A DNA stretch of 64,000 nucleotides, from positions 1 to 64,000 of the IMG/VR virus record IMGVR_UViG_3300036828_000615; one strand, written 5' to 3'. Positions within the stretch are counted from its first letter, which is position 1. Each line of letters starts with the position of its first letter. Made by a program: the position numbers and the translations under genes. This DNA comes from a virus (Duplodnaviria; Heunggongvirae; Uroviricota; Caudoviricetes). Below the pieces are notes generated by a model, which saw only the letters and a program-made list of their open reading frames with translations, did no database searches and was not told the DNA's origin. Below are positions 9,163 through 62,265 of the stretch, piece after piece.

Positions 9163-9449
9163 CCGGGTGTCCAGATGTGGACACCCCCAGCTGGCGCGGT
9201 ATGACCTTCGGCCAGTTCAACGCCATGCTGGCCGCGCGCAAGGCCGCCGCCGAGGAGCTGGCCCGCGTTGCGCCGCAGCTGGACGACCTCGTCGCGGCGC
9301 CGTGTGTGCACCCGTTCGAGGTGACCGGGATGCAGTGGCATGCCCGCCGCACGCCCGGACATCTGATGGTCACCATCGACTACGTCTGCCCGGACTGCGG
9401 GAAGACGGTCGCCCGGAGCAAGCGCGACATCAAGGCCACCCTGTCGTAG
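9159..9449 (+). CDS. hypothetical protein with C-terminal CPDCG
   Basis: ORF 9159..9449. The start may instead be ATG 9201, downstream of the palindrome. Confidence 0.5.
   Translation: MTGCPDVDTPSWRGMTFGQFNAMLAARKAAAEELARVAPQLDDLVAAPCVHPFEVTGMQWHARRTPGHLMVTIDYVCPDCGKTVARSKRDIKATLS
9165..9186. promoter_or_regulatory. palindrome GGGTGTCCA-N4-TGGACACCC, copy 1
   Basis: Perfect 9-bp inverted arms located 3 nt after the HNH stop. The same motif recurs at 23063 and 62245. Confidence 0.6.
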
Positions 9450-9489
9450 CCCCCGAGTAGCGTCAGACGATCCCACGAGAAGGAGCACG

Positions 9490-9837
9490 ATGACCACGAT
9501 GACCGCGAGCATCTCGTCCAGCTTCGATGTGTTCCACGCCGAGAACCCGCAGGTCTACCGCATCCTGGTGCGCCTGGCGCGCCAGTGGGTGTCGAGCACC
9601 GGGCGCCACTCGCTCGGTATCGGCGCCCTCTATGAACGGGCGCGCTGGGAGATCGCCATCGCCACCAGTGACCCCGACTACAAGATCAATAACAACTTCC
9701 GGGCGTTCTACGCCCGGCTGATCATGCACCGCGAGCTTGACCTGGTCGGGCTGTTCGAGCTGCGGACTTCCGAGGCCGACGAGTGGCTTCAGAACCTGAT
9801 CGACGCGGAGGAAAACGGATATGGAGGTCTGTGGTAA
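9490..9837 (+). CDS. hypothetical protein (115 aa)
   Basis: RBS gagaaggagcacgATG. Confidence 0.65.
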   Translation: MTTMTASISSSFDVFHAENPQVYRILVRLARQWVSSTGRHSLGIGALYERARWEIAIATSDPDYKINNNFRAFYARLIMHRELDLVGLFELRTSEADEWLQNLIDAEENGYGGLW

Positions 9838-10238
9838 TGGCTGAGATCAGCTTGTCGGGCAAGCTTCCACGAGGTGATGCGAATGGGCTTAGTCCCATCG
9901 TTAGATCACTGATCGCCGAACCAGAGAAGGTGCATGCGCTGGTTCTACTGGTTGACTGCGTGCGGATCACAACTGAAACCGAAACCGGCGAAACGATTCC
10001 GACAATGCGCATCCGTCGCGCCGAGGTGATCTCGCATGCCGACCTCAAGGAGGCGCAGCGGTTGATCCGCCGGGGCTGGGAGAAACGCGCCGGCGACACC
10101 GTGTTGCCGATCGAACTCGAGGACGATCTCACGACGATCTTCAAGGGCATCGACCTCACCACCGAGCCGGAGAAACCCCGCAAGGACGCCGAGGAGGGTG
10201 GCGAGGACGGCGCGGAGCCGGGCGACGAACAAAGCTGA
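9837..10238 (+). CDS. hypothetical protein (133 aa, acidic C-terminus)
   Basis: TAATG overlap with the upstream stop. Confidence 0.55.
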   Translation: MAEISLSGKLPRGDANGLSPIVRSLIAEPEKVHALVLLVDCVRITTETETGETIPTMRIRRAEVISHADLKEAQRLIRRGWEKRAGDTVLPIELEDDLTTIFKGIDLTTEPEKPRKDAEEGGEDGAEPGDEQS

Positions 10239-10687
10239 TGCGCAGCTATGAGGAGATCTACGCCACCGCCCGCGACGAGCGGCCGTTCTCCAACGGCACC
10301 GAGGGCTACGCCTGGATGGAGAACTGGTGCTGGGCGCCGTGTCACAACCCCGCCGAATTGGCGTGGCAGCGTTACGAGAACGGCGAGCGCAAGACCGCGC
10401 CGAAGGACTTCCCCGGCGGCTGCCCGCTGATCCTGTGCGCGCTGATCGGTCGCACCCCGACTGAGTGGATCGACACCTGGGACGGCGAGGGTCCGTACCC
10501 GCTGGGCGATAGGTTCCACTGCATCGAATACAGGGGACCAGACGACGGCCCCGGCGGGGACCCCCAGCCACGACCCCGCCGGGAGCCGCCCAATATGGAC
10601 GGATTGTTCGAGCGGCCGGAGCGGACGGTGCGGATGCTCAAGGTGGCTGAACCGGTAAGTCAAGAGCGTGTCGGTGCCCGGCGTTAA
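10238..10687 (+). CDS. hypothetical protein (149 aa)
   Basis: TGATG overlap. Product contains WMENWCWAPCHNP. Confidence 0.6.
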   Translation: MRSYEEIYATARDERPFSNGTEGYAWMENWCWAPCHNPAELAWQRYENGERKTAPKDFPGGCPLILCALIGRTPTEWIDTWDGEGPYPLGDRFHCIEYRGPDDGPGGDPQPRPRREPPNMDGLFERPERTVRMLKVAEPVSQERVGARR

Positions 10688-12692
10688 GGTGCGGGCCGTG
10701 CCTAGAAGGCGCTTCAGCAGCCGAGAGCGAACCGCGCTCTACCTCGCGGCCGATGGTCACTGTGAGGACTGTGGAGTCCGTCTGGAGCCGAGTTGGCACT
10801 CTGATCACGCCATCCCTTACTCGTTTGGTGGACCCACGAATGTTGTCAATGGCCGGGCACTGTGTCGGGCCTGCAATCTAAAGAAAGGGAACAAGATGGA
10901 CGGACTTTACGATTGGCAGCGCCAAGCGGTCGATAAGTTTCGCCGAGCAGTCAACCCTCGCCGGTTCCTGCTCGCGGCATTCCCAGGTATGGGCAAAACG
11001 AGATGCGCAGTCTCGATCCTTGAATCCACTGGCCGGTTCGGGATCATTCTTGTGCCGCAGGCTGACGTGGTTTCCCACTGGCGCAAGTGGCTACATCCCC
11101 ATCTCCCGCCAGCGAAAGTCACTACCGACGGCATTAGCCAACTCTGCCCTTGTGGCTGCCGACGTAAAGCCCGTTCAGCGGTTATGACATACGCTTTCGC
11201 AGCCGCTAATCCGCATATCCTTGCGACAATTTATCGCCAGCATGGCCCCTGCCTACTGATCTGCGATGAGGTTCACCACCTCCGTCGTGAGCGGTCATGG
11301 TCAGCGGCGATAATTAGCGCCTCCCCGTTCATCGACATGGTTCTCGCCTTATCCGCCACCCCGTTCCGTACCGACGAGGAGCCTGTTCCTTTCGTTCACA
11401 CCGAAGGGCCGTGGTCAACTGAGATCAACCTGATAACCGAGGATTACATCGCGGAGTACGGCTACGGGGCTGCGCTGACAATGGACCCGCCGCCGGTGAC
11501 CCGAGCGGTGTTCGAACGGTACGACGCGGACGTTACGTGGCTTGAAGCCGACATTGATGGCGAGGTGGAGAAGCAAGCCACATTAAGTGGGGAGCACGCG
11601 GTCGAGGTCGCCCGTAAGGCTCGCCGACATGCGATCGACGCTCGGGGTGACTGGCTCAACCGCGTTCTGATAAGCGCGGACGACAAGCTCGTATCTCTCA
11701 GGGCAGATGACCCCAGGGCAGGAGGGGTCATTATTTGTCGTGACACGAACCATGTGGTCGCGACCGCGAATCTACTTCTCGGTATCGGCACGGAAGATAT
11801 CGCCGTCTATACCCAGGACTACGCGACAACCAGTCACCGGCTCGGTGATGGCCGAATTCTCGATAACGGGACACGGTCAGGTCACCGACCAAGCCAAGAC
11901 GTTTTATCGGCATATATGGACGGCACCGCTAAATGGATCTTGACCGTTCGGAAGCTAAGCGAGGGGGTCGACGTTCCTCGGCTCCGAGTCCTGGTTTACG
12001 CGACGGTCGTCCGAACTCGGCTGTTCTTCATCCAGGCCGTGGGCCGTGTCGTCCGGGTTAGATGGGATCTCAATGTTGGGGTTGATCAAACCGCATGGAT
12101 CTACATCCCAGATGACCCGGTTACCCGAGGGTACGCAACCGAGATCGAAAACCTAGTGGCCGACGCGGAGATCACCGCCTATGAGCAGGACGAGGACGAG
12201 AACACCGAGGGAGGTCTCCCTGAGAGGTCGTCGGAGTCGTCGGAGGTGTTCGACAGGTTCGTCAGCGCCGAGGGTGAATACGCTGGCATGACATCAGGAG
12301 GGTCCGCCCATGATCCTCAGTTAGCTAAGCTCGCCGCCGAACTCGGTGGATCGGTAGTCGGCAATTTAGATGTGTTGCACAAGCTGAGCCGTCTCGGGCT
12401 ACTTAATCTGACGAACGATGATCCACCTCCACCTGATCACGACCCGGTTGATCCGATGGTTGTGTTCGCCACTAAGGTCAAGCAGAAGAATCAGGCCGTG
12501 AAAGCCTGGGCATCGCTGCGGCTTCGTCGAGAGGACTTCCCCAGCTACGGGGACTCGATCAGGTCGTGTAACCGAGATCTAGGTGAGCTATTTGGTGTCT
12601 GGGCGGAAAATCGGAACGTGAGCGCCGACCAGGTTGAGAAGGCAACCCAGTACGCCCGGGAGCAGATCAAGCGGCTACGCGGTCGTGGATGA
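10668..12692 (+). CDS. HNH nuclease domain fused to an SF2 DEAD/DEAH-type helicase
   Basis: N-terminal HNH (CEDCGVRLEPSWHSDHAIPYSFGGPT...NGRALCRACNLKKG), Walker A FPGMGKT, and motif II LLICDEVHHL. Confidence 0.8.
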   Translation: MSVPGVKVRAVPRRRFSSRERTALYLAADGHCEDCGVRLEPSWHSDHAIPYSFGGPTNVVNGRALCRACNLKKGNKMDGLYDWQRQAVDKFRRAVNPRRFLLAAFPGMGKTRCAVSILESTGRFGIILVPQADVVSHWRKWLHPHLPPAKVTTDGISQLCPCGCRRKARSAVMTYAFAAANPHILATIYRQHGPCLLICDEVHHLRRERSWSAAIISASPFIDMVLALSATPFRTDEEPVPFVHTEGPWSTEINLITEDYIAEYGYGAALTMDPPPVTRAVFERYDADVTWLEADIDGEVEKQATLSGEHAVEVARKARRHAIDARGDWLNRVLISADDKLVSLRADDPRAGGVIICRDTNHVVATANLLLGIGTEDIAVYTQDYATTSHRLGDGRILDNGTRSGHRPSQDVLSAYMDGTAKWILTVRKLSEGVDVPRLRVLVYATVVRTRLFFIQAVGRVVRVRWDLNVGVDQTAWIYIPDDPVTRGYATEIENLVADAEITAYEQDEDENTEGGLPERSSESSEVFDRFVSAEGEYAGMTSGGSAHDPQLAKLAAELGGSVVGNLDVLHKLSRLGLLNLTNDDPPPPDHDPVDPMVVFATKVKQKNQAVKAWASLRLRREDFPSYGDSIRSCNRDLGELFGVWAENRNVSADQVEKATQYAREQIKRLRGRG

Positions 12693-13622: not shown

Positions 13623-14579
13623 ATGTCGGTGCACACAATTACCGTTACCGCCATGACCACCCACACCCCCACCCAGCCCCTGGAAGTCATCGACGTCGCC
13701 GAGGCCGGCGAGGACGACACGCACTTCTTCTCCGTCACCACCATCCTCAAGGCCCTGTCCAGCCCGGCGCTGGAGTACTGGGGCAAAAAGCAGGTGGCGA
13801 TGGAAGCCATCGACAAGCAGGGCACCTGGCAGTCCATGCTGGAGGACTCCGGCCGGGTTGAGACCATCAAGTGGCTCTGCGGCGCGCAGTGGCGCCGGCC
13901 CAAGCTCGAGCTCGGCGCCGACCAGCTCGGCACCGTCGTGCATAAGCTGTGCGAGATCTTCTCGCTGACCGGCGAGAAGCCCGACCGTGCCTTCTGTGCC
14001 GACCTGATCCGCGCGCACGCCGCGCCCACCGTGGACCTGGAGTCCGAGATTCACACCGTCGGGCTGATGCTCAACCAGTTCGACAAGTGGTGCGACCGGT
14101 TCCAGCCCGAGTACACCGCGGCTGAGCAGCCAGTTTATTCCTACCGGTTTGGCTACGCCGGCTCCTTGGATTGCATCCTGACCATCGGCGGGGTGCGGTG
14201 CCTCTGTGATTACAAAACGAGGAGGGAGCCGCTGACCGCCAAAGGAGAGGCCCAGACCCCCTACGGTGAGACCGCGTTGCAGCTCGCGGCGTACCGCCAC
14301 GCCGAACTACAGGGCGTCGTGCGCCCGCGCCGGGTCGAGAAATTTAAGCGTCGCTACTACCTTCTCGGCGAAAAAGAGAGGGAGTTGGCTCAGCCGATGG
14401 AGCCGGTCGACGGCGCGGCCTGCCTGATTATCACGCCGCAAAGCTGTGAATGTTTTCCCATGAGAGCCGATCAGGAGGTGTTCGAGTTCTTCCTGCACAC
14501 CTACGAAGCCTGGCGCTGGCTGGAAGATGTCAGCAAGCGTGTGGTCGGCGACGCACTAGTCGCGCCAGGCGATCGCTGA
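13623..14579 (+). CDS. PD-(D/E)XK-family exonuclease (RecE/YqaJ/Cas4-like)
   Basis: Motif GSLDCILTIGGVRCLCDYKTRR (D...DYK), plus several Cys. The start may be 13623 or 13653. Confidence 0.6.
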   Translation: MSVHTITVTAMTTHTPTQPLEVIDVAEAGEDDTHFFSVTTILKALSSPALEYWGKKQVAMEAIDKQGTWQSMLEDSGRVETIKWLCGAQWRRPKLELGADQLGTVVHKLCEIFSLTGEKPDRAFCADLIRAHAAPTVDLESEIHTVGLMLNQFDKWCDRFQPEYTAAEQPVYSYRFGYAGSLDCILTIGGVRCLCDYKTRREPLTAKGEAQTPYGETALQLAAYRHAELQGVVRPRRVEKFKRRYYLLGEKERELAQPMEPVDGAACLIITPQSCECFPMRADQEVFEFFLHTYEAWRWLEDVSKRVVGDALVAPGDR

Positions 14580-15130
14580 TGGGCGGCGAGCGATGGTTAC
14601 CTGTTGCGGGATGGGAAACGACGCATCACGTCAGCGATCAAGGTCGCGTCAAAAGACTTGGCCGGTATGTAACGCGGACACGCTACGGCAAGCCTTGGTC
14701 CAGATGGGAGCCGGAGATAATTCTGCGGCCACAACGCGTCAATCGCGTCAACAAAAAGCCCTACCTTTGGATCAATCTCAAATCGCAAGGTCGAGTACGA
14801 AAGGTCTGGATTCATCGGTTGGTGTTAGAAGCCTTCATTGGACCGTGCCCGATCGGCATGGAAACGCTGCACGCGAACGACATCGCTGATGACAACCGCC
14901 TGGAGAACCTTTGTTGGGGAACGCATCTTCAAAATCAGAATCAGATGTCGCGCAACGGCCATACCACCAAGCAACGCAAGGATCTTGCGAGAGTGACCGA
15001 GGCCCAGGTGCGAGCCATCCGAACCGCCGTCGGTAATGGTGAAACACAACGATCAGTAGCCCGACGGCTAGCTATTGGAACCAACACCGTCTGGTGCATC
15101 GTCCATCACAAAACGTGGCGTTACGTCTAA
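14579..15130 (+). CDS. HNH homing endonuclease with C-terminal HTH
   Basis: Motifs THHVSDQGRVKRL and HANDIADDNRLENLCWGTHLQNQNQ. TGATG overlap. Lies between the exonuclease and the annealing-protein gene. Confidence 0.8.
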   Translation: MGGERWLPVAGWETTHHVSDQGRVKRLGRYVTRTRYGKPWSRWEPEIILRPQRVNRVNKKPYLWINLKSQGRVRKVWIHRLVLEAFIGPCPIGMETLHANDIADDNRLENLCWGTHLQNQNQMSRNGHTTKQRKDLARVTEAQVRAIRTAVGNGETQRSVARRLAIGTNTVWCIVHHKTWRYV

Positions 15131-15140: not shown

Positions 15141-16571
15141 ATGCCGATCTCGATTCTTGAACAACAACAGCGACTGATGGAGGTAGGCCGGCTCCGACTC
15201 GGCCGTCAAATCGAAACGCGCTCAGGGAAAAAACGTCCTACATCGCTCGATACCTGGCGGCTCACGTCGCCGGATCGGCAGCGGATCGCCGACGCAGCAC
15301 AGCTATACGGCGGAACTTTGACACAGTGGGAATCCCCCACAGGCCGGACGGAGTGGGAGGTAGTCACCACAGCCGACCGGCTACCCGTTATAGTTCCTCC
15401 CAGCGCCATGTGCTTCAGTCAATTCTTCGAACTGTGGTCCGCGGCAGGTTGTCAGAGACGATGCGACAGCATCACCGAACTGATCTCAGATCAGCCTTGC
15501 ATCTGCGATCAGGAAGATTTAGAACACCGAAAATGCGAACCCCGAACGCGCTTATCGGTAATGCTCCGTGATATTAAAGGTCTTGGACTCTGGCGCCTCG
15601 ATACCCAGGGTATATATGCGGCACTGGAGCTAAAGGGGTCTGTCGAGGTTATCTCATTGGCGGCGGGCAAAGGTCAGATGCTGCCCGCCACATTACGCAT
15701 TGATCAACGCGCCTCAAAACGTCCCGACGAGGGCACTCGCCACTATGTAGTTCCTGTCCTCGACATCGACGTAACCCCAGCAGAATTACTCATGGGCACC
15801 ATCGCTGTGCAGTCGCCGAAACAGGCTGCGCTGACACCGGTTCCGGCCAGCGGTGAGAAGCCGACCTCGATCGCCGATCAGGTCGGCGGCGCGCAGAACA
15901 TCCCGTCGCGCCGCCGCGCGCAGCCCATCCCGGCGACCGGCGTCGGGCACCGCGCACTGGGTCCGGCGCAGGTGATCGCGGGCGCACCCGAGCCGATGGC
16001 CCAGGCGGGCCGTGCCGCGGGCGGGCAGTTCGCCGAGCCCGATCCGTGGAAGGCCGTCGACGACGCGCGTGAGGCGGCCGAGGCCACCCAGGACCCGCCG
16101 CGGATGTGCACCCGCGGGCAGCTCACCAAGTTGGGCATCCTGCTGGGCAAGCAGGGCTTCACCGACAAGAGCCCTGAGGGCAAGGCGGCGCGGATGGACT
16201 TCTGTCGCGAGGCGCTGTTGATGCTGGCCGACCAGGGTGTGATGAAGCGCGAGACCTGGACGGGGCGGCCGATGAAGTCCTCGATCGAGCTCACTTTTGA
16301 CGAGGCACACCACCTGATCGAGTTCTTCGAGGCCGCCGAGAAGCAACAGGCCGAGCAGGCGGCAATGTCGGACGACAGTCAAACTGAGTCAAAGGTTGAC
16401 GATGCGCCCGAACCCGAACCGGCTGAACCTGAGCCGGCCGAGGATGACACTAGCGAGCAGTCCGTGCAGGAGTTGATCGCCGGACTCGACCCGGTCGACG
16501 AACCACCCGAGTCGGACGCCCCGGCCGAGGAGGACCCTAATCAGTTGAGTTTGCTCAGCCAGGAGCCGTGA
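15141..16571 (+). CDS. putative single-strand annealing protein / recombinase partner of the exonuclease (acidic C-terminal tail)
   Basis: RBS aaaaggagagccATG. The assignment rests on position after the exonuclease and the PEPEPAEPEPAE acidic tail. No certain motif was seen. Confidence 0.45.
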   Translation: MPISILEQQQRLMEVGRLRLGRQIETRSGKKRPTSLDTWRLTSPDRQRIADAAQLYGGTLTQWESPTGRTEWEVVTTADRLPVIVPPSAMCFSQFFELWSAAGCQRRCDSITELISDQPCICDQEDLEHRKCEPRTRLSVMLRDIKGLGLWRLDTQGIYAALELKGSVEVISLAAGKGQMLPATLRIDQRASKRPDEGTRHYVVPVLDIDVTPAELLMGTIAVQSPKQAALTPVPASGEKPTSIADQVGGAQNIPSRRRAQPIPATGVGHRALGPAQVIAGAPEPMAQAGRAAGGQFAEPDPWKAVDDAREAAEATQDPPRMCTRGQLTKLGILLGKQGFTDKSPEGKAARMDFCREALLMLADQGVMKRETWTGRPMKSSIELTFDEAHHLIEFFEAAEKQQAEQAAMSDDSQTESKVDDAPEPEPAEPEPAEDDTSEQSVQELIAGLDPVDEPPESDAPAEEDPNQLSLLSQEP

Positions 16572-16727
16572 CACGCCGCACAGAATTTTCACGACACGCC
16601 GGTTAACCCCGCCGAAACGGTGTGCACCCGGCGGGTGAAGCGGTATCGTCGCCACATCGCCGACCCCGTGCTTGAGGCCGACCTTCCGAAAAAAACGAAA
16701 GTGGTTGCGGCTAGGAGGATTCCGGTA

Positions 16728-16901
16728 ATGGTAAATGGGGACAGGCGCCACGTTTCCCCGAATGCCGTCGCGGCGATCACCCCCACCATCGACACCCACT
16801 GTCCGTCCTACCGACTCGGCCGCCACATCGGCGCCGCCCTCGGGTGGACCTACGTCCGGATGCACAACCTGTTTATGGGTGCGTCCACAGCATGTGAATA
16901 A
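16728..16901 (+). CDS. small hypothetical protein (57 aa)
   Basis: Strong RBS ggctaggaggattccggtaATG. Followed by a terminator hairpin. Confidence 0.55.
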   Translation: MVNGDRRHVSPNAVAAITPTIDTHCPSYRLGRHIGAALGWTYVRMHNLFMGASTACE

Positions 16902-16933
16902 AAGCCAGCCCCCGGGACTCGCAATCCCGGGGG
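16902..16933 (+). terminator. stem-loop (12-bp GC-rich stem): putative intrinsic terminator
   Basis: cagcccccggga ctcgcaa tcccgggggctg, immediately after the stop at 16901. Confidence 0.5.
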
Positions 16934-16953
16934 CTGATTACTGCACGAAACCG

Positions 16954-22429: not shown

Positions 22430-22880
22430 GCAGCGCGATTCACCGCTGAGCGTGCAGCGCGTCGAGGAGGTGTTCGCGGCGTGCCTGGCCCACGGCGCCG
22501 TCTCGCACCCCACCTGCACGGTGGTGGGCATCGTGTCCACGGCACACCTGTCGCTGAACCGCCTCGCCGAACACCGGCGCGACATCGCCGGGATGCTGGA
22601 GCAGCTGCCCAAGGCGTTCAAGGCGCGTGAGGCCGGTGGCGACGGTGGCTGGAGTTTCCTCAGCGCCTGCATGGACCGCGATGGGCGCCAGTGGACCGGC
22701 GAGCACCGCACGATGGAGAAACTGTTCCTGTTGGGCCTGGCCACCGAGCAGGCGAGCTGGTGTCTGCCGCGCGACATGTGGGAGGTGTTACCCGGTGCGA
22801 TGCCGTACATCAAGGTGACGCCGGATACCGAAGTGAATCCCAGAATTTGTCAACGTGACACGCCGTTGGGCGATAATTGA
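22422..22880 (+). CDS. hypothetical protein (152 aa)
   Basis: The start codon overlaps the upstream stop. Confidence 0.5.
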   Translation: MAEQRDSPLSVQRVEEVFAACLAHGAVSHPTCTVVGIVSTAHLSLNRLAEHRRDIAGMLEQLPKAFKAREAGGDGGWSFLSACMDRDGRQWTGEHRTMEKLFLLGLATEQASWCLPRDMWEVLPGAMPYIKVTPDTEVNPRICQRDTPLGDN

Positions 22881-22884
22881 AGGT

Positions 22885-49868: not shown

Positions 49869-50442
49869 GTCACACCGCCGGCTTAGGGTGCGTGACGTGA
49901 AGCGGTGCGGACGATGCGGAGAAGCGAAGCCGCCGGAGGCGTTCTACGCCAGCGTCCCTCGCATCTGCAAAGACTGCATTAAGGCCGCATCTGCCCGGTG
50001 GCGAAAAGCCAATCCTGAGCAAGTGCGTGATTACGCCGCTGGATATTCCAGGAAGGAACCACGTAGGTATTACGCCGGTTACCGCGCGCGGAACCGCCGA
50101 CACTTGCGTGCCTATGCTCGCCAACGTCACCACGAGCGATATGACACCGAGCCGAGTTATCGCCTGCGGTGCAGGATGTATGGCGCGCTGCGACGAGCAC
50201 GTAAACAGACCGGCGCGATCCCGTTCACTATCGAGGAACTCGAGGGGAAGTTCACCTACTGGAACAACTGCTGCTGGGTCTGCGGCGATCCGGCCGACGA
50301 GGTCGATCACGTCAAACCATTGGCGGTCGGTGGCAAACATATGCTGTGCAACCTGAGGCCGATCTGTATCTCGTGCAACCGCCGTAAACATGGTCGGTGG
50401 CCCCTGCCGTCGCGGGCAGAGATTCTGGGATTCGCTGCGTAG
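49867..50442 (+). CDS. HNH endonuclease (start uncertain)
   Basis: Motif CWVCGDPADEVDHVKPLAVGGKHMLCNLRPICISCNRRKHG. Opposite strand, inserted between tail genes. Confidence 0.65.
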   Translation: MSHRRLRVRDVKRCGRCGEAKPPEAFYASVPRICKDCIKAASARWRKANPEQVRDYAAGYSRKEPRRYYAGYRARNRRHLRAYARQRHHERYDTEPSYRLRCRMYGALRRARKQTGAIPFTIEELEGKFTYWNNCCWVCGDPADEVDHVKPLAVGGKHMLCNLRPICISCNRRKHGRWPLPSRAEILGFAA

Positions 50443-54600: not shown

Positions 54601-57600
54601 ACCTGGGCCGCGCCCACCGCCTCGTTGATCCCGGTGTTGACGTCGATGTAGCCGTGCTGGGTGACGCCTGGCTCCCACCACCCCGTTTTCTGGCCGCCGG
54701 ATTCACGTCCGATCAGGACCTTCATCGGCCCCATCCACACGGCCGGGTTGAGTCCCACGGCCTCGCACGCGCGCAGGATGGCGCTGGTTTCGTCGAGCCC
54801 GCCGGGACCCGGTGCCTGCGGGAGATTGCCGAGCAGGCCGCCCGGTTGCATTCCGACCATCCCGCCCAGGGCATAGTTCTGGTTGATCTTCCAGTGCTCC
54901 CACTCCGCGTTCGGCGACCCGGCGTGGCCTTTGATGTAGTTCATCATCGCCACGGCCTGGTTGTAGGGGCCCAGCGCCATCGCGTCCTGCGGGGTGTGCA
55001 CGTTGGGGAAGCCGTATCTGCGGTAGTTCGACAGCGTCAGCTGCCCCAGCCCGACGGACGGGTCGCCCGCCGTCGCGTTGCTGTCGGTCTGGTTCCAGGC
55101 GTTCGGACTCCAGCCGGACTCACCGTGCGAAAAACCCTCCGAGGGGCTGCCCGCGATGATCTTGGACACCCCGGACCACTGATCGGGCGCGAAGCCGCCC
55201 GCGATCATGCCCTTCCAGTAAGTGGCCGAGGTTCCCGGCAGTCCGACATGGGGGGCCAGGTGGCTCGGCGAGTGATAGCTCAGCGACGTCTTGGCCCCGC
55301 CGTGCAGCGGTCCCGCCCCCAGTGCCCCGCCGCTGGCCATGCCGATCAGGCCGCCGGTCTGGTTCCTTGACGAGCCGCCCCAGAGTGGGATGCCGTGCGG
55401 GGTGCCGTAGTGGCTCTGGATACTCGTCCACCAGTCGAAGTTCATCCCCGGGATCTGCCCCGGGTCCACGGTGTAGCCGCCCCCGTTGAAGCCGGCCCAG
55501 CCGCCGGTCGCCATGGCCGCATACACCTGGTTCTGCACGTCGCCGGTCGCCGGCGCGGCCGGCGCGCCGGATGCGGGCGCGCCGGTGGTCGCCGCGGAGC
55601 TCGGCAGGGTTTCGCCCGGCGCAAGCGTGAGCTTCACCGGCACGTCGAGGCCCTCGCTGCCCTGGAACCTCGACGGGATGCCGATGGAGTCCATCACCTC
55701 CGACGGGCCTTTTTTCTCGCCCTCCTTCACGTTCAGCGCGGTGGGAAACGCCACTCCGGGCGAAGTGACTCCACCGATGACCACGTCGCCCTGGAATTTG
55801 TCGGGGACCCCGGCGCGGGTCATGGTGTCGCCCTCGCCCATCGGCTGCGGTGTCAGCACATTGATCCCGGCCGGCAGTGCGATGCCACCGGTGGCTCCCT
55901 GTAGGCCGGGCGCAATCCCGGCCATGTCGAGCACCGTGCCGCCGGTTTGGAACGCCTGCGCATTCATCCAGTCCAGCTGCGGGCCGAACCGTGTTGAGGC
56001 CGGAAGGTTCATCACCTTCTCGCCCGCGGTCGCCCAGATCGGCACCCGATCGGTGCCGCCCGGGCCGCCCACGGTGCCGCCGTGCTGGTACTGGGACATG
56101 TCGCCGAGCGCCTGCATCAGCCAGATCAGCGGAGCGCCGGGGCCGGCCATCAGCGCGGTGCCCGTCTGGGCGGCGCCCTCGATGCCTTCCATCCAGCCCG
56201 GCAGCTTCGGCGGGGCTGGCGGCTCCTTGGGGGGACCGCCCGGCGTTCCCGGCGGCGCGCCGAACAGATGGGTGTAGAGGTTGACGTTCATGCCGCCGTT
56301 GGCGAACGAGTCGGCCAGCTCCGGCGCCACACCCATGTCCTTGAGCGACTGCTGCGGGGTTTTACCGGGTATCGGCTCGACTTTGAACTCGATCTTGGCG
56401 TGCTCGGAGATCTTGACGAACTCGTCGGGCCCGAATCTGGTGTTCAGGTATTCCTGCAGCGTGTCGAGGTCTTCTTGCGTGCTGGCGACGAACTTTTTGA
56501 TTTTGCCGGTGGCCGTATCCGCGTCGACCTGGATGCCGTGGCGCGCCAGCTGGTCCTGCACCTGCTTGAGGGCCGTCGGGTCGATGGTCATGTCGTCACC
56601 GACGGCACCCAGCGCGTCCTGCAGCTCGGCCGCCTTGCGCTTGACGTGGCCGTGCTCGTCGAGCTCGACGTTGCCCAGCGGGTCGGTCATCGGCGCGCCG
56701 TAGACGGCGCGGAAGTCCTCCCACACCCGCGCGGCGGCCTTGCTGTTGTTGATCAGGTCGGCCAGCGGCCCCTGCAGGCCCTCCATTTTGTTGCCGAGGG
56801 CGTCCAGGGCGTCGGCGCCCTTATCGGCCATCGTGTCCAGGCGCAGGTCCAGAAATTCCTTCAGGCTGGGGACCGCGTCGGTGGTGGCCTTGTTGATCCC
56901 CTTCATGGCGGTGACCAGCCCAGTCGGGTCGGGGCCGCCCATTTTGGCGAACGGCGCGGTCATCGCCATGAACGCCTCGTTGACCGTCGCGATCGCGATC
57001 ACGGTGGCGTTCTTGAAGAACTGCAGGGAGCCCGACATGTCGCGCAGCATGTCGGCCATGAAGTGGGTGATCTTGGCGCCCCACTCCAGCAGCTTCTCCG
57101 CGATGCGCCCGACCCAGCCGATGAACTCGTCCTGATGCAGCTGCAGCCAGCTGCTCATGTGGTCGCCCACCTCGTTGAGCTTGCCGACGAGCCCCTCGCC
57201 CAGTGGTGCCAGTGCGGCCATCACCTGGCTCTGTAGCCGCTCCATCGTGTCTTCGAGCTGCTTGGTGGCCTCCAACGCTTCCTTGAACGGCTCGGCCAGC
57301 GCCCGGCCGTGTTTGTTGAACGCGTCGACCATCGCCTCGTGGGTGGGGATGATGCCGTGGCGGATCTGGTCGACGAAGTTCTCGGCGGCCTTGGCCTGCA
57401 GCCCCATCGACTCCACCCACGCGACCGCGCCCGCCCGGCCCTCCCTGGTGGTCAGGTCGTACGCCTGGATGATCCCCACGAACTCCTGCATCGGCATGCC
57501 GATTTTGTTCAGCTGTTCGACCAGATGGCTGAACGCGAACGAGTAGCGGCCCAGCGCCGGTTTGCCCAGTTCCTGGTTGAGCAGGCCCATCATCATCGCG

Positions 57601-59765
57601 GAGTCCTGCGCGTCCAGCCCGGTCGCCTGCAACGCCGGGGACATCAAGTCCAGGTCACGGGTCAGCTCGTTGATGTCGGCGCCGGTCATCCGGGCGATGT
57701 TGACGAACTCGGTCAGTAGCCGATTGGTCTGGCCGGCCGGAACGTCGAAGGAGTTGAACGCCGCGGTGAGGTTGTCGACGTTGATCTTGGTGTCGCCCAG
57801 CAGTTCGTTGCCCTCGGCCAGGGTGGTCGCCAGCTCGGTCAACTGCCCACGGCTCAGCCCGGCACCGTTGCTCAGTCCCGACAGGCGCTGACTCAGTTCG
57901 CCGACCACGCTGGCGACATCCTTGAAGTGCACCAGCTCGCCGGAGCCGGCGATGTCGCGCACCACTTCCAGGTAGCTCTCGAGGTGCTCGACGCCCAGCG
58001 TCTGGCCGGCGACCTTGCGGGCGGTCTCCTGCCAGCGGTCGCCGATGTCGGTCAAGACCTTGGCGAACTGTCCGGCGATCGAGGTGTAGGTCGAGATGCC
58101 CGAGAAGACGGCGTTGATCGCCTCCTGGGCCTCCCCGGCTACCGCCTTGAACGCCGATCCGATGACCGGGATGTGCCCGACGGTGGAGTCGATGCCCATG
58201 TTGATCGCGTTGAGCGGGGTCTCCATCGCAGTCTTGGTGGTCTGGGCCACCAGGCCGAACGCGGCCTGGAAATCGGGTACCTTGCCTTCGATCACCGAGG
58301 TGAAGGCGCCCATCGCGGTCTCGGCGGCGCCCTTGGCCACCTCGCCCCAGTCCTTGAACTCCTTGTTGATGAACTCGAAGGAGTTCTTCATGGCGTCGAC
58401 GAACACGCGCCCGACGAAGGCGGCGATCTCGAGTGAGGGGCCCTTCATCGCGTCGGCCATCGCCTGTGCCGACCGCGACGCGGCCTGCCCGGCGGCCTCG
58501 GGGTCCAGGAAGGGGTGGCCGTAGACCTTGCCGCCCATCGCGTGCGCCGCCGCGTCCAGTTCCATGGACGTCTTGAGGGTTTTGTCCCTGAGCTGGTCGA
58601 TCTGTTCGACGCCGCGGCGGGCGACGGCGGCACTCTTCTCGCCCAGCAGGTCCAGCATCCGTCCCCACCCGGGGATCAGCGACAAGAAGTCGGCCATCAT
58701 CGGGCTGACCTTGATTCTGCTGCCGAAGGCCTGGTTGAACGCCTGCGCGGTCTGCCCGCCGATGGTGCCGAATTGCTGGGCCAACTGCGGCAGCAGCTGC
58801 TCGAAGCGCATCTGCTTGCCGACCTGCGCGGTGACACCGCGGAAACCCTCACCGAAGACGCTGGACGCCCGGTCGCCGAATTGGCTGTACAGCGTGCTCA
58901 CCTGGTCGAGGAACTGCGACTGCTCGGCGCGGAATGACTGCAGCCGCTCGGCGAAACTGTAGTTGAGCCGGGCCGAGAACGACTCCGATGCCATCGCGCC
59001 CATGCGGGCGAACTGCTCGGTCCACATCGGCTCGAACTGCTCGAACCGCTGCGTCGACAGGAACTCCCCGAGTCGGCGGCCGAATCCGCCGCCGAACTCC
59101 TGGCCGGATTCCTCGCCGGTGCCGCGGAACTTCGCCGGCAGTGCCACCGGCAGCAGCTCGCTCAGATTGCTGCTCAGCACCGCCCGCCGGAAACCCCCGC
59201 CGAACTCCTCGCCGGCCCGCTGCCCGGTCGACGACGCCTGGACGGCCCCGGCGACGTCGCGGAAGGCTTGGTTCGACGCCTCGGCCCAGCTCCTGCTTAC
59301 TTCACGCGCGCTCTCATCGAAATGCACCCGCATCGCCTGGCTGGCCTTCTGAGCCTGCTCGGCAACCGACCCGAAGATTCCCCGGAAATCTGCGTGCTGA
59401 ACCTCGGAGGTGATGGCACTGGCCACCATCTTGCCGACGTTCTGGGCGCCCGCCTGGCTCAGGAACGAGGTGGAGAACGCCCGCCCGGCGCTTCCGCCAG
59501 CCGCGGCGGACTCCGCCTCAGCCGCGGCGAAAGCCCGGCTGACCCCGGCCTGCATCCCGGCGATCTGGGCGCCCGCCGACGTCACGGCCTGGCGCATATT
59601 GTTCGCCAGCGCGGCGTTGAGCGGCGCGGCGAGGTTGGCGTTGAACTGGTTGGCGAACCCGGTCGCGGCCTCGCGGCCGATCTGCTCCATCTGCCGGTAG
59701 ATCCCGGCAGCTGAGGCCGCGACGTCAACCCATGAGATGCCTTCGCCGGCGCCGGGTGCACTCAT
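51624..59765 (-). CDS. tape measure protein (2713 aa) with SLT-like transglycosylase motif, His-rich motif and Gly-rich tract
   Basis: Helical, repeat-rich N-terminal two-thirds. SLT-like motif GRESGGQ...GAAQV near 54.7 kb. His-rich motif WGGHHGHVHTSF...HEH...GHQEHGG near 53.8 kb. Gly-rich tract GGGDGGGGGDSDRDGGWGGAGSGG. Confidence 0.9.
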   Translation of the reverse strand: MSAPGAGEGISWVDVAASAAGIYRQMEQIGREAATGFANQFNANLAAPLNAALANNMRQAVTSAGAQIAGMQAGVSRAFAAAEAESAAAGGSAGRAFSTSFLSQAGAQNVGKMVASAITSEVQHADFRGIFGSVAEQAQKASQAMRVHFDESAREVSRSWAEASNQAFRDVAGAVQASSTGQRAGEEFGGGFRRAVLSSNLSELLPVALPAKFRGTGEESGQEFGGGFGRRLGEFLSTQRFEQFEPMWTEQFARMGAMASESFSARLNYSFAERLQSFRAEQSQFLDQVSTLYSQFGDRASSVFGEGFRGVTAQVGKQMRFEQLLPQLAQQFGTIGGQTAQAFNQAFGSRIKVSPMMADFLSLIPGWGRMLDLLGEKSAAVARRGVEQIDQLRDKTLKTSMELDAAAHAMGGKVYGHPFLDPEAAGQAASRSAQAMADAMKGPSLEIAAFVGRVFVDAMKNSFEFINKEFKDWGEVAKGAAETAMGAFTSVIEGKVPDFQAAFGLVAQTTKTAMETPLNAINMGIDSTVGHIPVIGSAFKAVAGEAQEAINAVFSGISTYTSIAGQFAKVLTDIGDRWQETARKVAGQTLGVEHLESYLEVVRDIAGSGELVHFKDVASVVGELSQRLSGLSNGAGLSRGQLTELATTLAEGNELLGDTKINVDNLTAAFNSFDVPAGQTNRLLTEFVNIARMTGADINELTRDLDLMSPALQATGLDAQDSAMMMGLLNQELGKPALGRYSFAFSHLVEQLNKIGMPMQEFVGIIQAYDLTTREGRAGAVAWVESMGLQAKAAENFVDQIRHGIIPTHEAMVDAFNKHGRALAEPFKEALEATKQLEDTMERLQSQVMAALAPLGEGLVGKLNEVGDHMSSWLQLHQDEFIGWVGRIAEKLLEWGAKITHFMADMLRDMSGSLQFFKNATVIAIATVNEAFMAMTAPFAKMGGPDPTGLVTAMKGINKATTDAVPSLKEFLDLRLDTMADKGADALDALGNKMEGLQGPLADLINNSKAAARVWEDFRAVYGAPMTDPLGNVELDEHGHVKRKAAELQDALGAVGDDMTIDPTALKQVQDQLARHGIQVDADTATGKIKKFVASTQEDLDTLQEYLNTRFGPDEFVKISEHAKIEFKVEPIPGKTPQQSLKDMGVAPELADSFANGGMNVNLYTHLFGAPPGTPGGPPKEPPAPPKLPGWMEGIEGAAQTGTALMAGPGAPLIWLMQALGDMSQYQHGGTVGGPGGTDRVPIWATAGEKVMNLPASTRFGPQLDWMNAQAFQTGGTVLDMAGIAPGLQGATGGIALPAGINVLTPQPMGEGDTMTRAGVPDKFQGDVVIGGVTSPGVAFPTALNVKEGEKKGPSEVMDSIGIPSRFQGSEGLDVPVKLTLAPGETLPSSAATTGAPASGAPAAPATGDVQNQVYAAMATGGWAGFNGGGYTVDPGQIPGMNFDWWTSIQSHYGTPHGIPLWGGSSRNQTGGLIGMASGGALGAGPLHGGAKTSLSYHSPSHLAPHVGLPGTSATYWKGMIAGGFAPDQWSGVSKIIAGSPSEGFSHGESGWSPNAWNQTDSNATAGDPSVGLGQLTLSNYRRYGFPNVHTPQDAMALGPYNQAVAMMNYIKGHAGSPNAEWEHWKINQNYALGGMVGMQPGGLLGNLPQAPGPGGLDETSAILRACEAVGLNPAVWMGPMKVLIGRESGGQKTGWWEPGVTQHGYIDVNTGINEAVGAAQVTPGTAAEFGVDPKGLRNPLTNLIASMRYIQRYYANGAPDRPRGKGGLGKNVPPDLAVLNVQQADSTMAPMGYQKGGLLSGFFKGILGELGFALPEKKGDEEHKSFWEMLTGNKPEGFNGGGHIKGNYWPGRDTVPMKVPPGTFIMNRNSSQNYADILDHILGVGPQGSYATGGMIPIIAQPGERVIPPGAAPAGLLHAMNQGTLQRRATGGGTGVLQVIYNPPNTREFYGEAAPYGLVGPGTSQPQYYNADWGGHHGHVHTSFETGPDGAPYGMPTGTNLPGTGHEHPEFASAGFGWVLALGRQYGLNASTYPGHQEHGGKNHGLDWWPAGKADMSGLSYTPEETDRLRRFASAMRSTGASGSGAWGGASTAGSYAGSYGSAAIGGSTRLSPAGAALRAQLKAVLPSWLSSALGMQGGGEPAIVPSPYSSVMGGDGPDDGGGGDRDAPAAPGDRPPPHSEGARAAADTPGAVSTRFGYYVYPSLDNLMGMTVKQAHDFIEWLHAAERAQENLTKDTTSLDKAIQDQINTAERLRQAREAVTGIEDQYKDSLAKMTAQQRRDWEENFKPYKDAMAELRKATTADEAATTAVTNAKRAQHDAIIDQTEKELAPAPGTKEKTTPDENAASMGAGLVKGMAQELGFGDVFAKPPWEWGIWKLFAGGASFALNLANMVGEAGGVGGKWKGTGGPGAGLGASGTDQAPGGAATTPAAGGPDASGVYTMPWGEKDIPSGGGYTYQHGDMVNRKGRWYPKDTAPAEEKPNIQPEGSEEPGMEGAPEGAHFLTPLAGAPPGAEFEMTLNGKRTRRFWGHDKKEIAPPASAAPPPGGGAGQLPGAGPGSGPPKGLPGMFPGSGSAGPAASGDPNVYFGGGDGGGGGDSDRDGGWGGAGSGGSIGGAGGILDWLEHPASLAIRQARAEGRLGPPPAANIARGMAASQPPAATPGAAMSGGNSLTVNQNIDPKPGDSAKNFIQSSMLSFMRAPAFFGGAGVPA

Positions 59766-61328: not shown

Positions 61329-61417
61329 CAGATTCCTCCTGCTTAGCGGGATGACGAGGGCAGTCTGGATCCGCCACGGTAACTAACCGCGCAAGACACG
61401 CCCGGTTACGATTTCGT

Positions 61418-62053
61418 GTGTCCGCACGCCCGAAATGCAAAGATGCTGGTGTGTGCAACGTCGAGGGTTGCCTCAAGCCAACAAGGTGCCAGGGCTTTTG
61501 CGACATGCACCATGCGCGGTGGCTGAAGTACGGCGGTCCCGGGCCAGCGGAGATGATCGGGAAATGGGCCAGCCTTGAGACCAGGTTCGCCAACGGCATC
61601 GCTGCGGGGCCCTTGCCTGAAGATCCCGGCCTGGGCCGCTGCTACATCTGGATGCGCAGCGTCACCGAACGCGGCTACGGCAAACTCCAGGACAAGGGCC
61701 GCCAGATCTACGTGCATCGCTATGCCTGGTTCCTCGCCTACGGCGAATGGCCCACAAAACATCTTGATCACCGATGCCGCAATCCCCGTTGTGTGCGAAT
61801 TGATCATCTCCGCGAAGTCACTCACAAACAGAACATCGAGAACCACAGCGGTCGGCCCAACGCATCCAACAAGACCTCGCGCTACCGCGGCGTACATCTG
61901 ACCGGGGGAAAATGGATTGCTGGTTTCACCCACAACGGCAAACATCACCACGTCGGAACGTTCACCGACGAGGACGCGGCTGGTAACGCCGTCAGGCTAG
62001 CCCGCAACGAGTGCTTTACTCACAACGACGCCGATAGGAAGGAGGCGTTATGA
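61418..62053 (+). CDS. HNH endonuclease with zinc-finger and AP2 domain
   Basis: Motifs CNVEGCLKPTRCQGFCDMHHARWLKYG and SRYRGVHLTGGKWIAGFTHNGKHHHVGTFTDEDAAGNAVRLARNE. Confidence 0.8.
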   Translation: MSARPKCKDAGVCNVEGCLKPTRCQGFCDMHHARWLKYGGPGPAEMIGKWASLETRFANGIAAGPLPEDPGLGRCYIWMRSVTERGYGKLQDKGRQIYVHRYAWFLAYGEWPTKHLDHRCRNPRCVRIDHLREVTHKQNIENHSGRPNASNKTSRYRGVHLTGGKWIAGFTHNGKHHHVGTFTDEDAAGNAVRLARNECFTHNDADRKEAL

Positions 62054-62241
62054 AAATCACCGTGGTTGTGGAGCTCGGCACCCGCACCGTCGTCGAACAG
62101 ATCCTCACTCCCGAGGACTTCCGCGGCGACTACCGTGCGGCGATCACCGAGGCCGTCACCCGCATCGAACTGAGTACTTTCGGTCCCGAAATCTCCGAAG
62201 CGCCGTCGTTCGACGAGCAGCTACGGATGCGCGGACAGTGA
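62050..62241 (+). CDS. small hypothetical protein (63 aa)
   Basis: RBS aggaaggaggcgttATGA. Confidence 0.55.
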   Translation: MKITVVVELGTRTVVEQILTPEDFRGDYRAAITEAVTRIELSTFGPEISEAPSFDEQLRMRGQ

Positions 62242-62244
62242 ACC

Positions 62245-62265
62245 GGGTGTCCGGAAATGGACACC
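62245..62265. terminator. palindrome GGGTGTCC-N5-TGGACACC, copy 3, between convergent genes (putative bidirectional terminator or operator)
   Basis: gggtgtcc ggaaa tggacacc, lying between the stops at 62241 (+) and 62269 (-). Confidence 0.55.

Follow-up and report, generated by a model that had tools for sequence, protein, structure and literature searches.

A family of identical-stem hairpins at stop codons in uncultivated mycobacteriophage-like viruses

The palindromes found in a 64 kb stretch of DNA from a tailed virus (the window, meaning the whole stretch analysed) are members of a larger family of hairpins with identical stems that occurs in uncultivated mycobacteriophage-like viruses. 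Comparison of the copies indicates that base pairing is kept up by compensatory change, and the family is best, if tentatively, explained as a clade-specific, REP-like intercistronic RNA hairpin that would protect or define 3' ends and affect translation at the stop/start junction (probability about 0.45). Action at the RNA level is what we infer solely from position and covariation, and the same covariation would be given by a cruciform or by a single-stranded DNA hairpin. Within the clade the element has probably spread by recombination, partly alongside HNH cassettes.

Copies in the window and in the rest of the phage genome

Sequence read-out and a pattern search of the 64 kb window placed exact GGTGTCC-N6-GGACACC palindromes at 9166-9185, 23064-23083 and 62246-62265, in agreement with the first-pass annotation, which had reported these three with the same extended arms; none of 100 shuffled windows contained a match. 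Window-wide, GGTGTCC is the sole 7-bp stem that occurs in at least three perfect hairpins. A fourth copy (S4), overlooked in the earlier reading, has a stem that is the compensatory variant with C-G in place of T-A. The four hairpins are as follows:

S1, 9165-9186, plus strand: GGGTGTCCA-GATG-TGGACACCC, 9-bp arms, -17.5 kcal/mol
S2, 23061-23086, plus strand: CAGGGTGTCCA / TGGACACCCTG with loop AAAA, 11-bp arms, -21.1 kcal/mol
S3, 62245-62265, no strand assigned: GGGTGTCC-GGAAAT-GGACACC, between convergent stops
S4, 47292-47311, minus strand: reads GGTGCCC-AAAAAT-GGGCACC on that strand, -15.5 kcal/mol

Two further copies in the same phage lie just beyond the window (L066 1269-1288 and 6744-6763), and the total for this phage is at least six, with four GGTGTCC and two GGTGCCC stems side by side in one genome. 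Two Logan assemblies of the phage match the JGI contig at 100% identity, so the palindromes are no assembly artefact. Lone half-sites are not enriched in the window (24 seen against 17 expected, and six of the 24 derive from the three palindromes).

S1 to S4, and the capsid-upstream copy S5, lie immediately after stop codons. The spacing of 3-7 nt given earlier was roughly correct, the measured distances to the extended arms being 2 nt for S1 (from the TGA of the HNH gene 8773-9162, which ends at 9162), 2 nt for S2 (from a stop ending at 23058, with an ATG at 23101, 15 nt downstream of the hairpin) and 3 nt for S3 (from a stop ending at 62241). Another 3 nt separate S3 from the stop at 62269, so that this copy does sit exactly between two convergent genes, as had been claimed. 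S4 lies 6 nt 3' of the TGA of a minus-strand HNH gene. The genes concerned are:

8773-9162, plus strand: NUMOD4/HNH_3 endonuclease gene directly upstream of S1, shortened and possibly inactive
9159-9449, plus strand: gene downstream of S1, with candidate starts ATG 9159, GTG 9177 (in the hairpin loop) and ATG 9201
23101-23796, plus strand: gene downstream of S2, 231 aa, no known family, start as in JGI gene call P0006
46630-47328, minus strand: minor tail protein gene, with S4 within its first codons
47318-47878, minus strand: NUMOD4/HNH_3 endonuclease gene directly upstream of S4
49822-50442, plus strand: HNH endonuclease gene, antisense in the tail operon, at a junction where the relative L033 has a 46-nt spacer with the hairpin
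61418-62241, plus strand: HNH_3 endonuclease gene (61418-62053) and orf63 (62050-62241), an insertion in the minus-strand structural operon that ends at S3
62269-62817, minus strand: tail-terminator gene, its stop 3 nt from S3

The motif family in related phages

Searches across the genome and in related phages found the motif enriched well beyond the three sites first recognized: about 26 further positions carry it in at least 10 related metagenomic phage contigs, and it is multi-copy in the blastn relatives of the window. The basic unit is a 7-bp stem, GGUG(U/C)CC / GG(A/G)CACC, with a 6-nt loop, and the stem is often lengthened to 8-11 bp. Within 196 kb of related loci there were 24 perfect copies, three with a change in a single arm (two at the terminal pair and one yielding G.U on the sense strand) and three with double changes, all of them compensatory. 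Another 530 kb gave six perfect copies, four compensatory doubles and a single non-compensatory double at 6-nt spacing, which is within the chance background. Seven of the eight doubles at 6-nt spacing are thus compensatory, at four stem positions, where chance would give one in 21. At the orthologous capsid-upstream site, six phages show 100% pairing with two pairs altered on both sides. S3 has orthologous copies in L004, L048/L042/L138 and L036. Across lineages at around 70% nucleotide identity, orthologous copies retain the stem, while loops and flanks have diverged.

The loop sequences are unconstrained and the flanks vary freely, and yet about 30 of the 32 copies have a 6-nt spacer (the other two have 8 nt) and the loop ends show a purine/pyrimidine preference that carries no pairing requirement. 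A plain RNA hairpin would not explain the near-fixed loop length and the loop-end preference, which hint at protein recognition or at recent common descent.

Copies in the family sit 0-9 nt 3' of stop codons, and where the spacer between genes is long the copy is nearer to the upstream stop than to the downstream start (0 against 202 nt for S5, 16 against 219 nt in L024). In more distant relatives, hairpins with other stems occupy two of the same junctions, one preceding the capsid leader and the other separating the tail-terminator gene from the major-tail gene; at the latter, unrelated hairpins are found in HNH-less relatives and in the cultured phage Bipper, and in another subclade TGACAAC-gccg-GTTGTCA stands about 230 nt ahead of the capsid gene. 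The hairpin, and not the sequence of its stem, is the conserved feature at a given position. Rfam covariance models gave no match at gathering score anywhere in the window.

Predicted folding and proposed role

All copies are predicted to fold as a hairpin in their sequence context, with core energies of -14 to -21 kcal/mol. The stable RNA hairpin envisaged at the outset is therefore borne out by prediction, and the copies are placed where an element for transcript ends or processing would sit. For S1 and S2 an additional lower stem is predicted, in which the last part of the upstream ORF pairs with nucleotides just ahead of the downstream start; at S2 this stem extends to 2 nt before ATG 23101.

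In an mRNA, such a hairpin would mark the end of a cistron and could block 3'-to-5' exonucleases, so that a stable 3' end is left once Rho has terminated transcription or an RNase has cut. As it begins within a few nucleotides of the stop codon, it may also hinder the terminating ribosome. REPs at up to 15 nt from a stop codon stall ribosomes and lower expression, and REPs also stabilise the upstream mRNA (PMC12306157). Where a start codon lies in or just after the hairpin (S1, its counterpart in L168, and S4), downstream translation would depend on the terminating ribosome melting the structure. Occlusion of the next start codon had been suggested for the first two copies. It is plausible for S1, where homologue N-termini suggest that translation starts either at ATG 9159 or, inside the loop, at GTG 9177; the homologues P0010 and P0011 share a conserved S-(W/Y)-R/T-G ahead of the site corresponding to ATG 9201. 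In L168 an ATG lies 1 nt past the hairpin. For S2 it is not supported, the called ATG being clear of the hairpin, although the predicted lower stem comes close to it.

The shared stem could have arisen by copying and homogenisation among sites of the clade through recombination or gene conversion, partly together with HNH cassettes; gene conversion has likewise been proposed for REP evolution (PMC12306157). The mechanism that copied an identical stem to non-orthologous sites is at this stage a proposal, and a hairpin-specific protein may contribute to the sharing. Two copies count against the REP-like reading, namely one inside a giant ORF of a relative (L024 3936) and S4, which is translated through.

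Association with HNH endonuclease genes

Of the four window copies, three come directly after an HNH homing-endonuclease gene, which raises the possibility that the hairpin is part of an HNH cassette, breaking the endonuclease's own target and moving with the gene in the manner of T4 MobA/gene-60. The insert would stand between the endonuclease gene and its conserved neighbour, or just within the 5' end of that neighbour, and HNH-less copies would be remnants from which the endonuclease has been lost. S4 is a clean, in-frame insertion of 24 nt at the 5' end of the tail gene 46630-47328, whose product starts with MAPEHPVPKNGHPPIVEGQP in the window and with MPERRIVEGQP in L062. Both the insert and the HNH gene are absent from L062, L063 and L064, and about 22 nt between the two still match the HNH-less allele (GGAGCG..ATG..CCTGAGC), a stretch that recalls the 'homR' segment of MobA elements. 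For S1, the ortholog of HNH gene 8773-9162 in L168 is also followed by a hairpin, with the same 9-bp arms and a GAAA loop, and the HNH-less relatives L166/L167 have neither gene nor hairpin. The phage carries at least eight HNH genes, which makes turnover of such genes plausible. In T4, the insert protects against self-nicking by MobA, and the endonuclease can vanish while the insert stays (bioRxiv 10.1101/2022.08.31.505936).

The cassette is nevertheless unlikely to account for the family. No hairpin follows four other HNH genes of the window, and in relatives the majority of copies have no HNH gene close by, among them the capsid-upstream copy, which is kept in at least seven phages; joint presence and joint absence of endonuclease and insert, as for MobA, hold at S4 and S1 and fail for these HNH-independent copies. 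A hairpin of other sequence is already present at the tail-terminator/major-tail junction of HNH-less relatives, where it looks ancestral, with the HNH gene inserted beside it. Moreover, a protective spacer needs neither a hairpin shape nor one common sequence. The S4 insert shares with the T4 arrangement its place in the 5' part of the gene downstream of an HNH gene, its absence from endonuclease-free relatives and the target-like stretch in between. It differs in being only 24 nt long, in frame and stop-free, so that copies here are translated or intergenic and not bypassed. Translational bypass signals (a stop after the take-off codon, matched take-off and landing codons) were not found in the S4 insert. 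Unlike in T4, the same hairpin stands at many endonuclease-free loci, and a protective role here is putative. Should the cassette reading be true, the gene-60 principle would reach another phage world.

A broader form, of similarly low probability, is that the hairpin is a portable stem-loop of 20-24 nt carried or captured by the HNH endonucleases of the clade, which would both break their own target and couple translation of the neighbour to the endonuclease stop. It would lie between the endonuclease gene and an essential neighbour, or in frame in the first codons of that neighbour, and the endonuclease-free copies would be footprints of old invasions, since adopted as intercistronic RNA signals. 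If so, a one-off arrangement in T4 would become a reusable element in actinobacteriophages.

That the palindrome might be a recombination site or homing target, another of the initial suggestions, has weak support. The HNH-less alleles at S1 and S4 lack the palindrome, contrary to what a homing-endonuclease target would require, and only the junction at 49.8-50.4 kb fits, where L033 has the hairpin in place of the HNH gene of the window.

Other explanations

Improbable as well is a selfish or neutral mini-palindrome of the REP/MITE kind, spread and homogenised by recombination or template switching and with no function of its own, gene ends merely being the places where insertions are tolerated. 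Differing junctions are occupied in differing relatives, and presence or absence varies even among close relatives at several of them. S4 is a clean insertion that combines the variant stem of S5 with the loop of S2. Template switching within quasi-palindromes can yield symmetric changes with no need for selection. A neutral element does not account well for stems kept across lineages whose loops and flanks have diverged, or for positions that coincide with junctions where other lineages keep unrelated hairpins. RAYT (IS200/IS605-like tyrosine transposase) domains were absent from the approximately 40 proteins scanned, the flanks of about 30 copies showed no conserved tag of the GTAG or CGTC type, and no target-site duplication was seen.

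The binding site for a dimeric regulator that the first-pass annotation favoured is rather improbable. A double-stranded operator for a phage or host protein (repressor, late activator or roadblock), of the kind predicted for the 17-bp repeats of Cluster O mycobacteriophages (PMC4351075), would suit the strongly conserved 7-bp half-sites and the free spacer sequence of almost constant length, and the unpaired purine/pyrimidine preference at the spacer ends resembles an 8-bp half-site, GGTGTCCR. Moreover, a conserved -10-like TAYAAT, ahead of the capsid leader, is found 33 nt downstream of S5, and L046 has three copies clustered in a repeat-rich control region beside a small HTH-like ORF. Against an operator, in the variants the two arms have changed together so as to keep pairing, and variant and canonical sites are found side by side in one genome, which a single protein would not require. 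Independently varying arms, expected of an operator, are contradicted by the doubles, only one of which is non-compensatory. The two 8-nt spacers and the absence of half-site enrichment also speak against it, and the copies are anchored to stop codons and not to promoters; promoter and terminator scans found no sigma-70-like promoters beside them.

Termination by the hairpin itself would fit the GC-rich stem-loops directly after stops, one of them exactly between convergent genes, features shared with intrinsic terminators of actinobacteria and actinophages; another copy has an insulator position just upstream of a putative capsid promoter. U-tract-less terminators have been reported in the early region of actinophage phiC31 (Ingham et al. 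1995, cited in PMC3993855). A U-tract of 7-9 nt is absent 3' of the hairpin at all window and L066 copies, where the 3' flanks are G/C-rich on both strands, and consensus terminator scans (hairpin plus T-run) picked none of the copies. Among prophages, the nearest relatives come from Mycobacterium and Mycolicibacterium genomes, suggesting a mycobacterial host, and transcription by mycobacterial RNA polymerase in vitro was not terminated by hairpins without a U-tract, even with NusA and NusG (PMC3993855); if the host is a mycobacterium, a self-sufficient terminator is thus unlikely. A bidirectional Rho-independent terminator of the phiC31 kind is accordingly very unlikely, the more so as S3, S4 and S5 lie inside the essential late operon, where read-through is needed and an efficient stop would cut off tail and capsid genes, and as termination has no need of one stem reused in identical form.

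Comparison with known repeats

The hairpins resemble REPs in being short, GC-rich palindromes with a stem conserved family-wide, placed just 3' of stop codons and between genes of the same operon. Their density of about one per 12 kb is comparable in order of magnitude to that of REPs in E. coli. They differ in residing in a phage genome and not a bacterial chromosome, with only about six copies per genome, and in having neither a BIME-like paired arrangement nor a RAYT-like transposase among the proteins seen. The GTAG/CGTC-type tag at one end, a REP feature (PMC3733652), is also lacking. If the RNA reading is true, phages of high-GC hosts, in which classical terminators are scarce, would partition long late operons with a REP-like hairpin, and the hairpin would be a compact, portable tool with which mRNA ends and translational coupling could be controlled in mycobacteria.

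Hairpins with a shared stem that recur at a few places in a phage genome and have regulatory roles include the T4-type PeSLs, which flank mobile or variable genes, and the nut/boxB sites of lambda, where function depends on the loop sequence. Unlike PeSLs, the present copies have no associated promoter consensus that could be found, and unlike boxB their loop is not conserved.

Repeated short palindromes are already known in a few phage groups, among them Cluster O mycobacteriophages. The Cluster O repeats (TGTTCGG-N3-CCGAACA) also consist of invariant 7-bp inverted repeats around a variable centre, are present in many copies per genome and are often intergenic or at the 5' ends of genes (PMC4351075). 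They are of another sequence, with a centre of 3 bp as against 6 bp here, and are not tied to stop codons; they number more than 30, and one third lie inside genes. The authors of that study preferred a dimeric DNA-binding protein as the explanation and found no connection with indels (PMC4351075), whereas several of the present copies coincide with insertions; compensatory variants, found here, are not reported there. The present family forms an unusually clean comparative set, with one stem recurring at numerous non-orthologous gene ends, four stem positions that show compensatory changes, presence or absence among close relatives and a link to homing-endonuclease insertions.

Copies of the Hairpin in the Phage Genome

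The three palindromes reported by the first-pass annotation were recovered by sequence read-out at their described positions. The pattern GGTGTCC-N6-GGACACC has exactly three matches in the window and none in 100 dinucleotide-preserving shuffles, and GGTGTCC is the only stem common to three or more perfect hairpins there; isolated GGTGTCC half-sites are not enriched in the window. Once mismatches were allowed, a fourth site was found on the minus strand (the coding strand at that locus); it differs from the canonical hairpin by replacement of a T-A pair with C-G, and has the same loop as copy 2. A Logan assembly of the same phage (L066), matching at 100% identity over 10.6 kb, continues rightward past the window and adds two further copies, so that the phage has at least six, with stem position 5 being T-A in four and C-G in two.

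Copies of the hairpin in this phage (window coordinates unless stated)
9165–9186 (+): copy 1 (S1), extended arms of 9 bp
23061–23086 (+): copy 2 (S2), extended arms of 11 bp
62245–62265: copy 3 (S3), extended arms of 7–8 bp
47292–47311 (−): fourth copy (S4), GGTGCCC-AAAAAT-GGGCACC, 6 nt past the TGA that ends a gene on the minus strand
Right of the window, in L066: GGTGTCC-ACATAT-GGACACC, 62 nt upstream of the gene preceding the portal gene
Right of the window, L066 6744–6763: S5, GGTGCCC-AAATTC-GGGCACC, starting immediately behind a TGA, with 202 nt between it and the major capsid gene

The gene preceding the portal gene encodes 531 aa without a family match, and is presumably the large terminase. 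A literature search with the literal motif sequence returned primers only.

The window covers 64 kb of an 86.9-kb metagenomic contig (about 65% G+C) and belongs to a siphovirus of the actinobacteriophage type, encoding minor tail proteins, a lysin, a Ro60/TROVE protein and a 2713-aa tape-measure protein. The last is the product of one of two giant structural genes (51624–59765 (−), tape-measure-like with an SLT domain), the other specifying a 2273-aa glycine-rich minor tail protein (36430–43251 (−)). A mycobacterial host is likely, since the nearest cultured relatives, judged by a tail protein, include Bipper and other Mycobacterium phages along with M. abscessus prophages (<50% identity), and capsid relatives include prophages in the genomes of Mycobacterium and Mycolicibacterium. 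Megablast of 16 kb around copies 1 and 2 against 50,697 phage records gave no match, nor did protein searches of the genes downstream of S2 and S1 against known phages. Searches with the gene downstream of S2, with the HNH gene at S4 and, among viral contigs, with the gene following S1 gave no relatives, or relatives in unrelated contexts only.

Position at Gene Ends and Start Codons

Five of the six copies lie 0–6 nt after a stop codon; for the sixth, the preceding stop is the TAA of a small uncalled ORF, 9 nt away. The placement of copies 1–3 just behind stop codons stands, and the distance of 3–7 nt proposed earlier is roughly right, with 2–3 nt from the upstream stop to the extended arm; copy 3 does lie exactly between two convergent genes, as had been described, and fills the 27-nt gap separating their stops. 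Where spacers are long, the hairpin keeps close to the upstream stop (0 versus 202 nt at S5, and 16 versus 219 nt in the related locus L024).

Copies 1 and 2 were also said to cover the start codons of the following ORFs. This is not supported for copy 2, where the called start, ATG 23101, is 15 nt downstream of the hairpin; in the predicted fold, a lower stem joins the region of the stop codon to the bases immediately upstream of that ATG. For copy 1, two gene callers differ (ATG 9159 versus ATG 9201), and homologues conserve residues upstream of the position equivalent to 9201, which suggests a start either at GTG 9177, within the loop, or at ATG 9159. In the related locus L168 the ATG is 1 nt downstream of the stem, leaving no room for a Shine-Dalgarno sequence. 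It is a reasonable inference that downstream initiation may be coupled to melting of the hairpin by a terminating ribosome.

The reading we favor, tentatively (probability about 0.45), is that the palindromes are a family of intercistronic RNA hairpins resembling the repetitive extragenic palindromic (REP) elements of bacteria. In long operons, such a hairpin would shield the 3' ends of cistrons or set where they lie, and would also affect ribosomes where one gene stops and the next starts, as REPs do when they are no more than 15 nt from a stop codon (PMC12306157); all of these functional steps are read from anatomy and comparison.

Distribution among Related Phages

The advice to search for the motif genome-wide and in related phages proved productive: beyond the fourth window copy and the two outside it, about 26 distinct genomic positions carry the motif when all sets are pooled. 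A scan of viral contigs returned 61 loci, about half of which were unrelated single-copy terminators in low-GC phages, taken as chance matches and excluded. Each of a set of high-GC contigs with 66–90% nucleotide identity to the window in structural genes has between one and four copies, and further copies occur in the capsid-profile metagenome loci L101–L103 and L138, and in L168. Contigs that bear the motif include 3300036821_000055, the 3300047160 contigs, Ga0318505_10000007 and Ga0182034_10000003. The motif is present in only 4 of 76 loci of the capsid-profile metagenome scan, no credible copy was found in 15 prophage loci (including Mycobacterium genomes), and the first 50 kb of Bipper have neither a GGTGTCC hairpin nor a repeated stem. 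On this distribution the hairpin family is confined to one subclade, and a large covariation data set is consequently not to be had. One Protofrankia prophage locus has an exact-arm match with a 7-nt spacer, which was taken as chance.

Contig Ga0376658_0000050 (63.7 kb; L065/L167) shares 87–96% identity with window positions 26000–43000, the lysis and tail-fibre region, but differs in the early and head regions, a clear case of mosaicism; the GGTGTCC hairpin is absent from the 38 kb of it examined. In the relatives L024 and L040 the capsid gene has a giant, tape-measure-like gene as its immediate upstream neighbor, an unusual order.

Association with HNH Endonuclease Genes

The window has a very heavy burden of homing endonucleases, with at least eight HNH genes in 64 kb, one fused to a helicase and one antisense within the tail operon.

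HNH genes in the window
1217–1747
4250–5014
8773–9162
10668–12692
14450–15130
47318–47878
49822–50442
61418–62053

S1 and S4 each lie downstream of a NUMOD4/HNH_3 gene, and S3 follows an HNH_3 gene and a 63-codon ORF. At the S1 locus, L168 has an orthologous HNH gene and then TGA-ac-hairpin-c-ATG of the downstream gene, while an HNH-less relative has neither HNH gene nor hairpin; both the gene at 8773–9162 and its ortholog in L168 appear truncated and are possibly inactive. Three relatives likewise lack both HNH gene and hairpin at the S4 locus, where the hairpin forms an in-frame insertion of its own, 24 nt long, within the first codons of a tail gene, with about 22 nt between it and the HNH insertion that still match the uninterrupted allele. 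This layout resembles the MobA/gene-60 cassette of T4, whose hairpin-containing insert, located downstream of the nick site, guards against self-cleavage (bioRxiv 10.1101/2022.08.31.505936). That the hairpin is a component of endonuclease cassettes is nevertheless unlikely, given that four of the window HNH genes have no hairpin with them and most copies in relatives are distant from any HNH gene. At 49.8–50.4 kb, an antisense HNH gene in the window corresponds to a 46-nt hairpin-bearing spacer in L033. From these comparisons the association is real but partial, and fits either co-transfer of the hairpin in homing or shared use of a few permissive junctions.

Conservation of Pairing

Related loci totalling 196 kb contain 24 perfect copies, three altered in one arm only (at the terminal pair in two cases, with a sense-strand G.U as the result in the third), and three with double changes, all compensatory (GGTGCCC/GGGCACC, GGTGTTC/GAACACC and CGTGTCC/GGACACG). 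A second data set adds a compensatory AGTGTCC/GGACACT, and a single non-compensatory double at 6-nt spacing, within the chance background at other spacings. At the orthologous site upstream of the capsid gene, chosen by homology and not by pairing, the stem is 100% paired in six phages with two pairs changed on both sides, a result matched by 13 of 500 shuffles. By this evidence the stem pairing is selected, or kept by a symmetrising process.

About 30 copies have a 6-nt loop and two an 8-nt loop; the loop is free in sequence except that its first base is a purine and its last a pyrimidine, with no requirement for pairing between them; G.U versus A.C strand asymmetry at this loop-closing position was for that reason uninformative as a discriminator of RNA and DNA. 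The near-constant loop length and the same stem at non-orthologous sites still need either copying descent or a specific binding partner. A mobile palindrome without function is decidedly unlikely. An operator on duplex DNA, such as the dimeric-regulator site that the first-pass annotation preferred alongside a recombination/homing target, is quite improbable, as maintained pairing speaks against independent recognition of half-sites; small HTH/zinc-finger proteins that would be candidate binders are encoded, for example, at 5473–5790 and 22855–23058. WhiA (motif GACAC) and other actinobacterial regulators were rejected, the compensatory GGCAC variant breaking the motif.

Conserved Junctions and Other Non-Coding Features

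At two junctions having a hairpin is an older and more general trait than the sequence of that hairpin, since relatives have hairpins of other sequence at both. At the first, in front of the capsid gene, a conserved block comes after the hairpin, then a −10-like TAYAAT that is likewise conserved and a leader (about 130 nt) with strong conservation, which places the hairpin just before a probable capsid promoter; in another subclade an unrelated hairpin, TGACAAC-gccg-GTTGTCA, stands at the same distance from the capsid gene. At the tail-terminator/major-tail junction, relatives with a 70–109-nt spacer, including Bipper, have hairpins of quite different sequence, and in the motif phages the tail-terminator stop is directly followed by the GGTGTCC hairpin and then by an inserted antisense HNH cassette. 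That the hairpin is a self-sufficient terminator is highly improbable: no copy has a U-tract downstream or was picked by a terminator scan, and mycobacterial RNA polymerase needs a U-tract for termination in vitro (PMC3993855).

The stretch of about 200 nt in front of the major capsid gene (L066 6764–6965, alignment A4) is conserved in six phages; it comprises a CGGCGTGTCG block, the −10-like TAYAAT and the leader with its repeated GGTGACGA(A/G)CC motif, and could be a regulatory RNA or a structured 5' UTR. An attenuator at S5, with the 3' arm pairing to a GTGTC block in the capsid leader, was dropped because hairpin-bearing relatives lack that block. Downstream of the capsid gene there is another, stronger hairpin without a T-run (L066 8430–8470, ACCGAGCGGCCAC...GTGGCCGCTCGGT, 13 bp), so the GGTGTCC family is not the sole gene-end hairpin of the phage; the ORF beyond it (L066 ~8527–8718) appears Endonuclease-VII-like by eye, with no match in Pfam. 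In relatives, a repeat-rich non-coding region adjoining the capsid gene (L102 1860–2330, L103 5186–5600 and L046 5740–6370) contains up to five copies of a second hairpin family, AGGGGTTCA-N5-TGAACCCCT, along with direct repeats (GGGACC..ATCCC) and other perfect palindromes, and looks like an origin or control region.

Within the window, an apparently non-coding, more AT-rich stretch (16570–17600) holds a canonical terminator with a T-run at 16905–16937 (−), overlapping palindromes at 17455–17486 and a 15-bp hairpin at 17518–17550. The Ro60/TROVE protein, which also has a vWA domain, is encoded at 6215–8014 (−). Directly upstream of its gene, on the same strand, is a YrlA-like (Y RNA-like) match at 8021–8154 (46.5 bits, short of the Rfam gathering score of 69; E 1.8e-8), and a weaker one lies at 8417–8492. 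Three tRNA-like T-arm motifs were recognized by eye in the 750-nt gap (8015–8770), which may thus contain two or three tandem Y-like RNAs.
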